From NCBI GenBank assembly GCA_951813565.1, contig OX638351.1, positions 4,288,001 through 4,352,000 on the forward strand: a stretch of DNA of 64,000 nt, given 5' to 3'. The DNA comes from an uncultured Poribacteria bacterium. GTDB taxonomy: Bacteria; Poribacteria; WGA-4E; WGA-3G. A program made the position numbers and the translations under genes. Under the pieces are notes generated by a model that was not told where the DNA came from, ran no database searches, and worked only from the letters and a program-made list of their open reading frames with translations. Of this stretch, positions 3,673 to 11,217 are shown in pieces; positions within the stretch are counted from its first letter, which is position 1; the number at the start of each line of letters is the position of its first letter.

Positions 3673-5640
3673 TTATCTGCTTAGAGGTTTTTCTAAATCC
3701 CAGATCAGAATTGATCCGTCATAACTTCCACTGACGAGGGATTTGCCATCCCGTGAAAACTCAAATTTTGTTGGCAGTCCCGCATCACCTGTACGGAATT
3801 CGTGGCGAAGTGTTCTTGTGTCTACATCCCAAAGACGAATTAAACCTCCATGGTATCCGCTTACAACTGTTTTACCATCAGGTGAAAACTGCAGAACTTG
3901 AGGGCTGCCCCTTGCTTGAATAAAATCACCAATGTATTGATGCGTATCTGTATCCCAAATCAGCAATGTGCCATCCGATTGACCAGTAATGAGTATACTG
4001 CTATCCGGTGAAAATGCAAAAGTCGTGACGGCGCCATTAGAATCCAAAGTCAGTGGAGTTTTCTGCTGTTTGTCAAGGTCCCATAGGTATGCTATACCAT
4101 CTTTGCTTCCACTCGCAAATTTTTTGCCATCCGGTGAAAATGCGACATCATTGACGTTTTCAGTATGTCCATCAAGTTCAGTGAATAATCGACGGTTCGG
4201 AACATCCCATAATCTGACTTTGCCTTTCCAGTGGCCGCTTGCGACAATTTTATCATCAGGCGAGAATGCCAATGCTGTAACAAAATTGCCGTCTTTTTTC
4301 ATGGGTTCGTAGAAACGCTGCTTTTCCATATCCCATATCCTAACTTCACCCCAACATCCTGTCGCAGCAATCTTCCCATCGTTGGAGAATGCTGCTGCAA
4401 AGGCAAGCCAAGGTTGTTTTGTATGTCTAAGCTGTTCTGTATTCGTCTCTAAATTCCATACTCTTATTACACCGTCAAATGAACCAGAATACAACATTTT
4501 TCCATCAAAGAACTTTAATGCCTTTACTGAACCTGTATGCCCTTGTATCGTCAGTATTTCTTCTCCGGTTGTAACATCCCACACCTTTGCTGTTCCATCT
4601 TGGCTTCCGCTTGCAAGTCTTTTACTATCTGCTGTCCAGTCTAACCCTTTAACAGGAAGCGTATGTCCCATTAGAGTACGGTCCACCTGTTTATTATCTA
4701 TTTCCTTCTTTTTATCACCTGTAAGAGAACGTAAGACACTTGGTAACGTAGGTTTCTTGTCACCGTTATCTGTTTCTTGGCTGGAAAGATCAAAATCCCA
4801 TAAGATGATTTTGCCTCCTGTATCCCCACTGGCGAAAGTTTTGCCATCGGGTGAAAAAGTGATGGCTTCAACATTTCGTGTATGTCCTTTGTATTCAGAT
4901 AATTCATCTCCTGTTTCAACATCCCAAGAGAAAAGTTTTGTTTGTCCGCCGACAAGTGTTTTGCTATCTGATGAGAAAGCCAAAGTCCAGGCGCGACTAT
5001 TATTCAAAGTATGTTGGAGTTCTCCAGTGGACGCATCCCATAAAAATACTGTGTCTCTGCCAGCACTTGCAACCGAGTGTGCGTCTGGTGAAAGTGCTAA
5101 TCCGTTAAAAAGAGACTCTTGTGGCCCAATGAAGTGGAACATCTCGCGTCCCGTAGCAACTTCCCACATGTGATATTCAACACTGCGGTACCAACTGGCG
5201 CAAGCAAGCATCGTGCCATCCGGTGAAAAAACTAATACTTTTACTCTGCCTACATCTTGTTTTAAGACAGAAACACGTTCACCAGTGGTTGTATCCCACA
5301 GTTCAACAGCACCCCCGAGGACCCAATTCCCCAGTGCAAGTGTTTTGTTATCTGGCGCGAAGGCAATAGTATTTGCAGTCTGTACCCCGCGTGGTTGTAC
5401 TTTTAAAAGTGTAATTTCTGCACCGGTGTGCGCATCATAGATCCAAACTCCAATGTCAGATGCAACTGCCAAACGGGAACCATTCGGTGAAAATTTTACA
5501 TCATTTATTTTTCCTTTTCCAAGCCGCACCATTGCCCCTTGCGGTAAGTGCCATTGTGTATAATCCTGAGTTAATCCTATTGATAGAAATGTACTCGTAG
5601 TTAGTAGCAGTAGAATGTTGAGAAATACAATTTTTTTCAT
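3673..5640 (-). CDS. Secreted WD40-repeat beta-propeller protein
   Basis: Signal peptide followed by many GH...FSPDG...WD repeats. Confidence 0.93.
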   Translation of the reverse strand: MKKIVFLNILLLLTTSTFLSIGLTQDYTQWHLPQGAMVRLGKGKINDVKFSPNGSRLAVASDIGVWIYDAHTGAEITLLKVQPRGVQTANTIAFAPDNKTLALGNWVLGGAVELWDTTTGERVSVLKQDVGRVKVLVFSPDGTMLACASWYRSVEYHMWEVATGREMFHFIGPQESLFNGLALSPDAHSVASAGRDTVFLWDASTGELQHTLNNSRAWTLAFSSDSKTLVGGQTKLFSWDVETGDELSEYKGHTRNVEAITFSPDGKTFASGDTGGKIILWDFDLSSQETDNGDKKPTLPSVLRSLTGDKKKEIDNKQVDRTLMGHTLPVKGLDWTADSKRLASGSQDGTAKVWDVTTGEEILTIQGHTGSVKALKFFDGKMLYSGSFDGVIRVWNLETNTEQLRHTKQPWLAFAAAFSNDGKIAATGCWGEVRIWDMEKQRFYEPMKKDGNFVTALAFSPDDKIVASGHWKGKVRLWDVPNRRLFTELDGHTENVNDVAFSPDGKKFASGSKDGIAYLWDLDKQQKTPLTLDSNGAVTTFAFSPDSSILITGQSDGTLLIWDTDTHQYIGDFIQARGSPQVLQFSPDGKTVVSGYHGGLIRLWDVDTRTLRHEFRTGDAGLPTKFEFSRDGKSLVSGSYDGSILIWDLEKPLSR

Positions 5641-7700: not shown

Positions 7701-7704
7701 CACC

Positions 7705-7733
7705 TTGACATTATATCAAGTCTGTGGTATGCT
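7705..7733 (+). promoter_or_regulatory. Sigma70-like promoter
   Basis: TTGACA-17 nt-TATGCT with a TG extension; overlaps a perfect 10-bp inverted repeat at 7681-7706. Confidence 0.5.
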
Positions 7734-7746
7734 TTAATCGCATCGT

Positions 7747-8652
7747 GGGCGCAAGGGGGCTACCACTCCCTGCCTACGGTGTTTCCACCTCTTGTAGGAG
7801 GGGTTTTAAACCCCGATAAACGCTTGGAGTTCGTAGTCGTGCAATTCATGGCACCTCTTACATTTCTTGTAGGAGCGCTTTGTAAGCGCGATGCATAGTA
7901 GCCAGCGCGCTCCGCGTGCTGGCCGTCGCGCCTTTTGTGGAAGCACTTTAGTAAGAAGCGCGCGATATATTGTTGCTGAAAACGGTTCACACATCAGTAT
8001 AAATTCGTTTTCAATAATACAGAGTGATAAAGTTTGTAGGTTGGGTTGGGTAGAGTTTGCGAAACCCATAAATCAACGCTATGAATGCCTTTATGGCATT
8101 CAGCCAAATCAACGCAGCATGCGCGTATGGCATGCTGCGGGCGTCAATTTAAGGATTTATTTCAGGTTTCACACATTTTAACCCAAACAACACCGGAACC
8201 CAATTGTAGGGGCGGGTCTCCGGTGAATGCCAAAAGGCATTCATACCCGGTGAATGACTAAAGACGAATGCGCTTGGTAGAATACGCTTTTGGTATTCTA
8301 CATGATTCGCCATGGTTCATACCGTTGATTTCTTGATTTGGTGCCCGCCAGTTGTTTGAATACATCAGCAATGGCGGGGCACAGAGACCCCACCAAATGC
8401 CAAAAAGCGCATTTGGCGTTGATTTGGCCCTACAAGGTGTGCCAGGATTTATCCCCTAAATTGACACCTATGGGGGTAGAGTTTGCGAAACCCAACCTAC
8501 TTATAACTAATGTAAGAGGCGCAATGAATTGCGCGACTACAAACGCTGATATTCTTAAAATCCGCGAAATCTGTGTAATCCGTATCATCTGTGATTCAGA
8601 CAACAAAATCCAACACAAAGAGGTTGACGGCACACGGAGTGTGCCTACTACT
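7747..8652. repeat. Mosaic of GTAG-type REP palindromes, a MITE-like element (about 8139-8469) and CAAATCAAC micro-insertions
   Basis: Several GTAG-hairpin units; inverted termini GGGCGTCAATTTA / TAAATTGACACC; CAAATCAAC units at 8070, 8105, 8221-8340 and 8392-8426. Confidence 0.85.
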
Positions 8653-8719
8653 TTTAATCGCACATCTAAATCGGTTATTTATAAACTACCGTATTAAAAC
8701 CAATTATTGAGGTATAAAA

Positions 8720-9736
8720 ATGTTTCAAAACCTATCGATTCAATCTATTGGGGTTGCACTGTTAATAGCAGCGCTTATGATTCCATTAGCTTTAGCGGAG
8801 AATGAAGTGGAAAAACCGAAAGAACTTAAAGTGGGCATGATAGCCCCAGATTTTACGTTGAAAGATGAAACCGGGACCGAACGTAGTCTCAGTGAATTCT
8901 TAGGAAAGAAAAGCGTTGTCCTCGCCTTTTATCCGAAAGACTTTACCGGTGGCTGAACAGCCGAACTCCAGTCGCTCCGGGATAAATTGAGCGACATAAA
9001 AGAAACCGAAACTGTCTTGTTCGGTGTCAGTGTAGACAACGTTGAGTCGCATAAAAAATTTAAAGAACAAGAAAAGTTCGGATTTTCATTGTTGGCGGAT
9101 ACTGAATTTGAGGTAAGCAAGCAGTACAGCGGGGTTATGGAAAGGTTTAACGCTTCAAAACGGACGACTTTCATTATTGATAAGGCAGGATATATCCGTG
9201 CAATTGATAAAAAAGTCAAAGTGCAGACGCATGGTGAAGATGTTGTAAAACTGCTTAAGAAAGCACTGCCAAAAATAGAAGTTGGGCAGCCTGCTCCCGA
9301 TTTTATCGCCAGGGATGGCGCAGGAAAAACACACCAACTCAGCAAGTTACAGGACAAAAAGAACGTGGTTTTAGCGTTTTATCCGCGTGATTTTGGGCGT
9401 GGCTGAACGGCTGAAGTTTGCTCGCTCCGTGATGAGTCGAGTAGTTTTGCTGAACAGGATGTCCAGGTCTTTGGGATTACTATCAATGATGCTGAGTCAC
9501 ATCAGAAATTTTCGAAAGAAAATGAACTGAATTTTCCACTGCTGATGGATACAGAAAAGAATCTTGCCTTACTCTTTGGTGCTGCTGCAGAAAAATCCGA
9601 CAAACGTTTCAAGCGCTTGACGGTAATCATTGACAAAGCAGGAAAAATCGTGAAAATTGACAAAGAGGTCAATCCAAGCACACACGGGTCAGATTTAGTG
9701 GATTTCTTCAAAACCGTTGATGCGTCAAAAGAATAA
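8720..9736 (+). CDS. Exported tandem two-domain peroxiredoxin (AhpC/BCP-PrxQ type) selenoprotein, 338 aa, Sec at codons 79 and 229
   Basis: ORFs 8720-8956, 8987-9406 and 9545-9736 share one frame and are separated only by TGA at 8954-8956 and 9404-9406. Read-through gives FYPKDFTGG-U-TAELQ and FYPRDFGRG-U-TAEVC, the peroxidatic Cys position. Confidence 0.93.
8971..8995 (+). promoter_or_regulatory. Candidate bacterial SECIS hairpin 1
   Basis: GTCGCTC-cgggataaatt-GAGCGAC, a perfect 7-bp stem starting 14 nt after the UGA. Confidence 0.7.
9419..9443 (+). promoter_or_regulatory. Candidate bacterial SECIS hairpin 2
   Basis: TGCTCGCTC-cgtgat-GAG(T)CGAGTA, a bulged stem; shares TCGCTCCGnGAT with hairpin 1 at the same distance from the UGA. 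Confidence 0.65.
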
Positions 9737-10351
9737 TTGATGACACGTAAGACTTTCTCGGCATTTCCTGCTTGGGTTGCTTTGGGAACTTCTGTAATTT
9801 TTAGTCCGTTTATTGTACCGATTGTAACGGCTATATTTGTTGTCCAAAAACATGCGACTACAAATCAAGAAGTGATGCTTTGGCTTGCAATTGTGGCAAC
9901 ATTTGTTACGGTGCTACCGATATTGGCAATAGTTTTGCTATTTCGGTTTTCGAAGGTGAGTAATTTACATCTCCGTGCCAAAGAAGAACGACTAATACCG
10001 CTCTGCTTCACGTTAGTCAGCATGATTATAGGAACCATAATCCTTTACAAGATTGGGGCAAGTTCCAAGATCATTTGGGCGTGCATAGCTTATATTGTAA
10101 ATAGCGTTGTGTTTTCTGCTATTACACCACTATGGAAAATTAGTTTTCATACCAGTGTTACAACCGGCTGTATAATGGTCTTAGTGTTCCTTGTAAATTC
10201 TAATTTAGTGTGGCTTTTTCTTCTTGTTCCACTTATAGCATGGGCAAGGGTTTACCGTGAACGTCACACACCTCTTCAAACGGTCATCGGCACGCTGTTA
10301 GCAATTGTTAACACGATGCTTGTTTTTTATTTTCTACCGATTTCTGGATAA
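9737..10351 (+). CDS. Integral membrane protein, PAP2/phosphoesterase-like
   Basis: Multiple transmembrane segments; WKISFH and WARVYRERHT motifs. Confidence 0.7.
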   Translation: MMTRKTFSAFPAWVALGTSVIFSPFIVPIVTAIFVVQKHATTNQEVMLWLAIVATFVTVLPILAIVLLFRFSKVSNLHLRAKEERLIPLCFTLVSMIIGTIILYKIGASSKIIWACIAYIVNSVVFSAITPLWKISFHTSVTTGCIMVLVFLVNSNLVWLFLLVPLIAWARVYRERHTPLQTVIGTLLAIVNTMLVFYFLPISG

Positions 10352-10401
10352 AGTTCGTTGGTCGGGTTAAGGTGAAGAAAGTCAAATATAGTTGTTTCAC
10401 A

Positions 10402-11217
10402 CTATGGAACATTCAATGACGTTTTAATTAAAGGTAGTAGATTATCCCAGTCACATTGTAAGCAAAAATAATTACTTTCACCGATACGTTTTACTTCGCC
10501 ATTACATTCAGGGCAACTTGTGAGACGCTCAGTTTCATCAATATCTGTTTCAGATAACGGTGGAAACATCAGCAGTTGTCCTATTGGCAGAGCAGGTTCT
10601 CGACTGGCGATATGTTGTTGCACAGCTTCAATTACCTCTTGTGCATTTAAATGGAGTGGTGGTGGTGCATTTTCTGTCAGATCAATAAAGCTGCTCCGGT
10701 AAAATCGAATGGTCTCAGCATCATTGACGCGACGCATGAACACCGTAAATTTACATGGGGCTACCAAAAAAGCAGAAGAATCTAATATGTGGTGCTTCGC
10801 GCTTAAAGAAAGTTCATAGCCACCATATTCAAAGATGGAATTGCCTTGGTCCATCCAAATAGTATCTGGAGTATTCTGAAACACCTCATGGAGTTCATAC
10901 GAACGAGTGACCGACAGAATTAAGACGTATCGCTGATACGGATACTGTGATAGAAGTTCAACTGGCAGAAAAGATTGAGGTTCAGAAATTTGTTGGAGAA
11001 ATGTTGTAAATGCTTTATATGCTGCTTCCTCAGCCCTTCGTAAAACCGAAAGATTCTGTCTCTGAAAGTTGAGCGTACGCCCCTCCGACTGTGAAATCGC
11101 TGCCTCACTGATGTAAAGTTCTGTTTGGACATCAACGTCTACAGTGCTATTTAGACTACTGGGAATATGGAGACGCTGCACCGATTCTTCAGTGGTTTTG
11201 AGGACAAAAGGTAACAT
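10402..11217 (-). CDS. Hypothetical protein with C-terminal zinc ribbon
   Basis: 271-aa ORF with CPEC...CLQC near the C-terminus. Confidence 0.7.
   Translation of the reverse strand: MLPFVLKTTEESVQRLHIPSSLNSTVDVDVQTELYISEAAISQSEGRTLNFQRQNLSVLRRAEEAAYKAFTTFLQQISEPQSFLPVELLSQYPYQRYVLILSVTRSYELHEVFQNTPDTIWMDQGNSIFEYGGYELSLSAKHHILDSSAFLVAPCKFTVFMRRVNDAETIRFYRSSFIDLTENAPPPLHLNAQEVIEAVQQHIASREPALPIGQLLMFPPLSETDIDETERLTSCPECNGEVKRIGESNYFCLQCDWDNLLPLIKTSLNVP

Follow-up and report, generated by a model that had tools for sequence, protein, structure and literature searches.

We analyzed a 64,000-nucleotide stretch of DNA (hereafter the window) from an uncultured Poribacteria bacterium (GenBank assembly GCA_951813565.1, contig OX638351.1, positions 4,288,001 to 4,352,000, forward strand) and focused on a gene at 8720-9736 (+) that probably encodes a tandem peroxiredoxin with two selenocysteines (Sec, U). 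With a probability of about 0.88, this is one gene for a 338-residue pre-protein of the Bcp/PrxQ type, which would be exported, would receive Sec at two TGA codons through selenocysteine insertion sequence (SECIS) hairpins, and would reduce peroxides with each of its two domains. Translated with TGA as U, the region forms a single frame of 338 codons followed by a TAA stop, and its in-frame stops are limited to two TGA codons, at 8954-8956 (codon 79) and 9404-9406 (codon 229). Under translation table 11, the frame splits into open reading frames (ORFs) at 8720-8956, 8987-9406 and 9545-9736, and the pieces that follow each TGA show neither a ribosome-binding site of their own nor a proper start when the sequence is read. 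The features of the gene, in window positions and with their basis in brackets, are:

8709..8712 (+): Shine-Dalgarno-like GAGG, 7 nt 5' of the ATG (sequence reading)
8720..9736 (+): whole coding sequence, tandem Bcp/PrxQ-type peroxiredoxin with two Sec codons (frame, Pfam, NCBIfam, orthologs)
8720..8797 (+): putative signal peptide, residues 1-26, MFQ...LALA followed by E (hydrophobic core)
8831..9202 (+): peroxiredoxin domain 1, residues 38-161, motif PKDFTGGU, no resolving Cys in this genome (best PF00578 stretch, PDB Bcp alignments)
8954..8956 (+): TGA codon 79, predicted Sec at the peroxidatic position of domain 1 (translation; TGA in 97/98 distinct orthologs)
8971..8995 (+): SECIS-like hairpin 1, GUCGCUC, 11-nt loop CGGGAUAAAUU, GAGCGAC (folding, orthologs, synonymous constraint)
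9281..9682 (+): peroxiredoxin domain 2, residues 188-321, motif PRDFGRGU-x4-C (Pfam Redoxin stretch 188-321 and second AhpC-TSA stretch)
9404..9406 (+): TGA codon 229, predicted Sec at the peroxidatic position of domain 2 (translation; TGA in 98/98 distinct orthologs)
9419..9443 (+): SECIS-like hairpin 2, 9-bp stem with one bulged base, loop CGUGAU (RNAalifold, covariation, synonymous constraint)

Both TGA codons are conserved in related genomes. The 80 best genome loci all came from Candidatus Poribacteria or from uncultured-bacterium metagenome-assembled genomes. We extracted 98 distinct genes out of 120 loci (50% to 90% identity); site 1 was TGA in 97 of them, the exception being a TCA in a paralog, site 2 was TGA in all 98, and no TGT, TGC or TGG occurred at either site in this set. 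A full-length gene with both TGAs was present in 33 of the 36 genomes of the same genus (it is split in two pieces in G027, and two genomes have none) and in 19 of 24 genomes from the three other families of the order; the remaining five were four g3 genomes with a single domain-2-like, one-TGA gene and one genome without any. An even sample of the phylum yielded a full-length gene with at least two TGAs in 131 of 151 genomes, the organism's own included, and all 131 belong to families f1-f4 of one order, while 11 genomes from five other families of the phylum gave no match at E 1e-40 or better. Over 8628-9449, across both TGAs, the window was identical to DNA contigs from two additional public runs. 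Given this agreement of independent contigs and the presence of the codons in 97 and 98 of 98 distinct orthologs, the TGAs are not assembly errors. RNA libraries X13 and X14 gave short contigs in 3 and 5 of 30 bins, their uncovered parts carrying no information; contigs of 151 and 154 nt from the two libraries lie on 8865-9015, which spans the first TGA, and 9084-9237, a weak hint of transcription.

Family models and structural comparison both assigned the two halves of the protein to the Bcp/PrxQ type. Pfam detected two AhpC-TSA stretches (E 9.4e-70; PF00578, 232.7 bits against a cut-off of 26, a score that sums both domains), and the best NCBIfam model was the Bcp thiol peroxidase NF006960, which matched in two stretches with 187 bits against a cut-off of 140, again with both domains summed. 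The PrxU model NF040737 reached 111.2 bits, below its equivalog cut-off of 270 for membership. The two domains share 46% identity, and an internal duplication is the best explanation of their origin. The closest solved proteins by PDB alignment were an archaeal Bcp1 (3drn, Sulfolobus solfataricus), a Bcp (2ywn, S. tokodaii) and a mycobacterial AhpE (1xvw, Mycobacterium tuberculosis). U79 was aligned to the peroxidatic position of the solved Bcp proteins, and in 2ywn (VCTKEMC) both the peroxidatic Cys and the resolving Cys at +5 aligned with the query. An AlphaFold2 (AF2) model built on a 41-sequence alignment showed two peroxiredoxin folds, with a predicted local distance difference test (pLDDT) of 91.1 and a predicted template modelling score (pTM) of 0.84. 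In it, U79 lies at the start of helix 77-88 and U229 at that of helix 227-238, as for the peroxidatic residue of helix alpha2, and Foldseek matched the domains best to Bcp/AhpE structures, with template modelling (TM) scores of 0.84-0.91 normalised to the target. Residues R148 and R299, nearly invariant in the 41-sequence alignment, occupy what we take to be the catalytic Arg positions of peroxiredoxins, and R148 aligned with the Arg of 3drn in ...aRiTFvID....

The active-site motif of peroxiredoxins is PxxxT/SxxC, and 1-Cys Bcp proteins exist besides the atypical 2-Cys ones. For the Sec form, the accessible text of a recent review quotes PxxxTxxU (PMC13188914). The active-site stretches of the gene read FYPKDFTGG-U-TAELQ in domain 1, where the motif is intact (P72-x3-T76-x2-U79), and FYPRDFGRG-U-TAEVC in domain 2, where Gly replaces the Thr in this genome (P222-x3-G226-x2-U229). 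The sole Cys of the whole protein is Cys234, at U229+5, and Gln84 stands at the equivalent place in domain 1. The initial annotation of this DNA had described three ORFs as one frame broken by two TGAs, each at the peroxidatic Cys of a BCP/PrxQ-type domain, together with a domain 1 devoid of Cys, a U-x4-C arrangement in domain 2 and a Gly for its motif Thr, and all of this was recovered here. Its further claim, that the two domains differ in mechanism, holds for this genome but describes no fixed family trait. At U79+5, the 98 orthologs carry C (27), Q (25), R (25), N (8), K (8), E (3) or S (2), the resolving Cys at U229+5 is kept in 97 of them, and the Thr position of domain 2 is G in 69 and T in 29. 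Since domain 1 is variable at +5 among orthologs, its "1-Sec" state in this genome is, on this comparison, a lineage state and no family rule. The Gly-for-Thr replacement was found in 20 of 20 same-genus loci, in none of 19 loci from the other three families and not in paralog L053, and it is likewise, judged from these alignments, a lineage-specific change.

Some relatives have lost one of the two sites. The tandem paralog L053 (G014:C108:3099-4610) has a degenerate domain 1 (FCPTDFLIGS, with TCA for TGA) and a domain 2 that keeps its TGA and U-x4-C. Database proteins P0019-P0021 are entries of the L053 type, with a degenerate domain 1, that end at a TGA (...FYPKDFTSG), and domain 2 is the degenerate one in P0016 and P0022. 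These one-dead-domain lineages suggest that each peroxiredoxin domain is able to function independently. Separately, in genus g3 (G038, G041, G047 and G053) the only form of the gene has one domain, similar to domain 2, and one TGA, and shares 55-58% identity with residues 185-332; G053 has two copies of it. Many more peroxiredoxin-like matches with one in-frame TGA were also seen in the organism's own genome and its relatives, 10 of them in the former (G000), for example G000:C1:5151533-5151982 (+).

Bacterial SECIS elements are described, in the accessible text of PMC1088965, as a stem-loop directly after the UGA, with an apical loop that is small and has a G in it. We found such a stem-loop with a G-containing loop downstream of both codons, at +18 to +42 (site 1) and +16 to +40 (site 2), with weaker support for site 1. 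For site 2, RNAalifold on 40 sequences predicted a 9-bp stem (columns 16-24 with 31-40) with one bulge and the loop CGKGAU, in agreement with a separately derived structure. In this structure 98% of cells were paired, versus 24-47% when the partners were slid, compensatory pairs were present at 18-38 (CG to UA) and 21-34 (GU to AU to UA), and the covariation score was reached by 0 of 500 shuffles. In each of the 98 orthologs, no fewer than 8 of the 9 pairs form, and the Cys234 codon constitutes the first three bases of the hairpin. The register differs between lineages at site 1: the genus uses GUCGCUC, an 11-nt loop and GAGCGAC, and the other families use a site-2-like register, one or the other being formed in 91 of 97 genes. 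In L026 and L027, from the same genus, the outermost pair of the site 1 hairpin changed from G-C to C-G, and hairpin 1 is stabler than 97.4% of synonymous recodings.

The coding sequence is also constrained at these two places. Amino-acid-conserved columns had a synonymous diversity of 0.249 within the hairpin windows (n = 17), against 0.539 elsewhere (n = 85; Mann-Whitney p 1.7e-6). The lowest values of the whole gene fell on codons 234-242, and codons 84-91 were also among the lowest windows; Leu86 is encoded by CTC in 96 of 97 genes and Leu236 by CTC in 97 of 97. As a separate observation, contig depth in run X4 over 9393-9453, which covers the second TGA and its hairpin, was approximately 20 times that of the flanks (840 vs 41), with several variant contigs ending there, as expected if many co-occurring strains share a nearly invariant stretch.

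We propose that the ribosome would decode UGA79 and UGA229 as Sec, each with the help of an in-frame SECIS hairpin 14-17 nt after the UGA, whose G-containing apical loop would recruit SelB with Sec-tRNA(Sec). Export through the cytoplasmic membrane would then be driven by the hydrophobic N-terminus, acting as an anchor or as a signal peptide that is cleaved off. This segment (residues 1-26) ends in ALA before E, and a hydrophobic core (Kyte-Doolittle, 15-residue window, at least 1.6) was detected in 91 of 97 orthologs, some of the six without it probably reflecting the start codon chosen. The AF2 model has a low-confidence helix there, followed by a disordered linker (23-32). We infer export from this segment; the periplasmic protein with a signal peptide that had been proposed initially thus keeps its hydrophobic N-terminus, but that segment is the one pointer to its location. 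Each domain may reduce peroxide by oxidation of its selenolate to selenenic acid. In domain 2, Cys234, at the resolving position of Bcp (U-x4-C), would form a selenenylsulfide as in atypical 2-Cys Bcp enzymes, and the "1-Sec" site of domain 1 in this genome would depend on an external thiol or on the neighbouring domain. The genome encodes a DsbD_TM protein, and recycling could be ensured by a reductant of the thioredoxin fold that this DsbD-type membrane protein would feed; because of this membrane reductase gene, reducing power in the envelope is plausible.

Two other views of the same protein deserve attention. One, which we consider improbable, accepts both Sec residues and holds that the protein is an uncleaved, membrane-anchored one, or a thiol/selenol redox relay or sensor of the envelope instead of a bulk peroxide scavenger. 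An N-terminus without a basic n-region in this genome, the integral-membrane PAP2-like protein encoded by the conserved downstream neighbour and the loss of the active-site Thr from domain 2 in 69 of 98 orthologs would all suit it, but the ALA-E cleavage-type motif after the hydrophobic core, the Sec and catalytic Arg positions (R148, R299) kept in both domains, and best family models that are Bcp peroxidases favour an exported peroxidase. The other view is an extension of the exported peroxidase that we would advance as a doubtful idea at most, in which the protein is a self-contained, pseudo-dimeric selenoperoxidase of the envelope with an active site rewired by selenium. Sec being already ionised, domain 2 could have dropped the near-universal Thr, replaced by Gly in 69 of 98 orthologs together with a new Arg at -2, and Cys234 or Sec229 of domain 2 might resolve domain 1 intramolecularly through a Se-S or Se-Se relay. 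To our knowledge, such an inter-domain relay has not been seen in any described peroxiredoxin.

The organism appears equipped to insert Sec. Its 5.43-Mb genome encodes a SelB wing domain inside a 662-aa ORF, with a tRNA-Sec (78 bits) approximately 0.5 kb from this selB ORF, as well as SelA (525 bits). A tRNA scan of the 64-kb window found none, the tRNA-Sec being located elsewhere in the genome. The selD gene (372 bits; G000:C1:4610940-4611866 (-), locus L012) has one in-frame TGA in ...KCAGUASK..., and the selenophosphate synthetase of the organism is therefore itself a selenoprotein. With these, selA, selB, selC and selD were all found. TGA remains a stop codon in this lineage: ruvB, within the window, ends in it, as do 12 of 98 peroxiredoxin orthologs. 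These data bear on a reading in which UGA is translated without Sec, either because the whole lineage uses a TGA=Trp or TGA=Gly code or by near-cognate insertion of Trp or Cys. Metagenome catalogue proteins P0002-P0018 do show W at site 1 (17/17) and site 2 (16/17), but this W is an artefact of the gene caller's code, because the DNA counterparts in the genomes examined carry TGA, never TGG. From general knowledge of the family, a peroxiredoxin with Trp or Gly in place of its peroxidatic residue would be inactive. Together with TGA acting as a stop, the complete Sec system, its Sec-type selD and the constrained hairpins, this makes non-Sec read-through very improbable, and Sec insertion at both codons is the reading that we retain.

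The protein is also maintained past its TGAs. Relative to the gene of the window, and using only pairs with unsaturated dS (47, 63 and 72 of 97 per segment), the median ratio of nonsynonymous to synonymous substitution rates (dN/dS) was 0.054 for residues 36-78, 0.093 for residues 80-228 and 0.124 for residues 230-330; by this measure, purifying selection persists beyond both TGAs. A decaying pseudogene, or three unrelated short ORFs with true stops and only a 78-residue fragment made, is hardly credible: table 11 does yield three short ORFs, some database entries (P0019-P0021) do stop at a TGA and one ortholog has an extra TAA, but orthologs of 50% to 90% identity carry TGA at the same two codons in 97 and 98 of 98 cases, exactly at the catalytic positions, dN/dS past the TGAs is 0.09-0.12, and the post-TGA pieces lack a ribosome-binding site or proper start. 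The initial annotation had also anticipated Sec genes in the genome, homologs conserved beyond both TGAs, homologs with Cys at these positions and a gene missed by standard annotation. The first appeared as selA, selB beside tRNA-Sec and a TGA-bearing selD, the second as dN/dS values of 0.09 and 0.12, and the third as P0027 (single-domain) and P0030 (tandem Cys/Cys), both from outside the lineage; as for the fourth, database proteins are cut at a TGA (P0019-P0021) or have W.

Several observations nevertheless weigh against a two-Sec exported enzyme. The orthologs are kin, and the statistics drawn from them overstate independence; the compensatory changes are each confined to one clade, so that they represent few independent events. 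No single RNAalifold consensus emerged for site 1 across 39 sequences, because two hairpin registers are in use, and 6 of 97 genes have weaker site 1 hairpins only. Taken alone, the hairpins of the window are only moderately unusual (z -0.3 to -1.9 vs dinucleotide shuffles, not significant), and 2.6% (site 1) and 5.8% (site 2) of synonymous recodings fold as well. Rfam gave no SECIS family match over the whole window at gathering thresholds, and on 8900-9520, with E up to 10, it returned two unrelated chance-level matches only; the bacterial SECIS elements of this gene therefore lie outside Rfam coverage. In addition, an additional TAA interrupts the frame in domain 1 of ortholog G051, no basic residue precedes the hydrophobic core at the N-terminus of this genome, the RNA-library contigs are short, and DNA carry-over into them is possible.

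The gene directly downstream is the following:

9740..10351 (+): PAP2-like membrane protein gene (adjacency in relatives, weak Pfam match, Atlas neighbours)

It starts 1-4 nt after the peroxiredoxin stop and is the immediate downstream gene in 57 of 69 loci with full flanks, and it is a probable operon partner of the peroxiredoxin gene. The Pfam PAP2 match of its product (E 0.011) falls short of the cut-off; in the Atlas, PAP2 clusters are its neighbours (score 0.97). A 271-aa ORF at 10402-11217 (-), with no family match beyond weak C-terminal zinc-ribbon ones, comes next and keeps this place in 53 of 69 related loci. Upstream, the approximately 1-kb intergenic region 7701-8719 is dense in short dispersed hairpin repeats (TTGTAG and a GC-rich hairpin); allowing up to 4 mismatches, the genome has 254 copies of repeat unit 8518-8546 and 46 copies of unit 8627-8657, and metagenome contig depth rises 10-60 fold at 8600-8660. 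A terminator consensus scan of 8300-10500 proposed a terminator at 8629-8645, which we rejected as one of these dispersed repeat hairpins. The promoter consensus scan of the same region gave fewer promoter-like sites than shuffles, none of them upstream of the peroxiredoxin gene. Elsewhere in the window, 3673-5640 (-) encodes a WD40 beta-propeller protein of 655 aa. It is of the eukaryote-like repeat type, and such proteins are often reported in sponge symbionts.

On this reading, the sponge-associated Poribacteria of an entire order maintain an enzyme with two Sec, which standard annotation pipelines fragment or mistranslate with Trp, and the antioxidant capacity and selenium demand of these symbionts would therefore be under-counted. 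Bacterial proteins with two Sec residues and a separate in-frame SECIS for each are uncommon. Here the SECIS would have been duplicated along with the domain and would later have changed register between families at site 1, which makes the gene a natural system for SECIS evolution under coding constraint. The Thr-to-Gly change beside Sec could likewise serve as a test of how far selenium loosens the active-site needs of peroxiredoxins. The enzyme class is already known, and the advance is to that extent incremental.

Bcp-type peroxiredoxins with Sec (COG1225, PF00578, TxxU) are a selenoprotein family abundant in marine metagenomes, according to the accessible text of PMC1088965, and the part of a 2026 review of prokaryotic selenoproteomes available to us lists the peroxiredoxin family with one Sec (PMC13188914). 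Accessible passages elsewhere mention Poribacteria as carriers of Sec hydrogenases (PMC13582414) and an enrichment of selA and selB in sponge symbionts (PMC5649159). In the literature outside subscription journals and supplements, our searches turned up no account of a peroxiredoxin that is tandem or carries two Sec, nor of one from Poribacteria. The gene shares with the marine family its Bcp/PrxQ fold and subfamily, Sec for the peroxidatic Cys in PxxxTxxU (domain 1), a bacterial SECIS immediately downstream and a marine setting. Unlike that family, which is listed with one Sec in the accessible review text, the Poribacteria protein has two fused domains, two predicted Sec and two SECIS, as well as an N-terminal export-type segment and, in domain 2 of the lineage, GxxU for TxxU.

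Compared with the Cys-type Bcp/PrxQ proteins (Escherichia coli Bcp model NF006960; 3drn, 2ywn, 1xvw), the domains align end to end, with 28-39% identity and TM scores of 0.84-0.91, and domain 2, with U-x4-C, preserves the CP-x4-CR spacing of peroxidatic and resolving Cys seen in atypical 2-Cys Bcp. Whereas the solved proteins have a single domain, this one is a tandem, is probably exported and has a predicted Sec at the peroxidatic site. PrxU is reportedly the Sec-containing peroxiredoxin of Eubacterium acidaminophilum. The present protein resembles it in being a peroxiredoxin with Sec at the peroxidatic position, but it belongs to a different subfamily and, at 111.2 bits against the NF040737 cut-off of 270, is not a PrxU. 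Cys occupies these positions in the solved Bcp proteins, at the single site of P0027, a single-domain homolog with a signal peptide from outside the lineage, and at both sites of P0030. The latter, a metagenome protein of 375 aa and 32% identity, has the same Bcp-Bcp two-domain layout and a hydrophobic N-terminus but differs in its two catalytic Cys, with CP-x4-CR in both domains; tandem Cys/Cys fusions of this kind, only distantly related, may represent an independent fusion. Set beside these systems, the tandem layout with two Sec and two SECIS appears to be an undescribed form of a known enzyme type.

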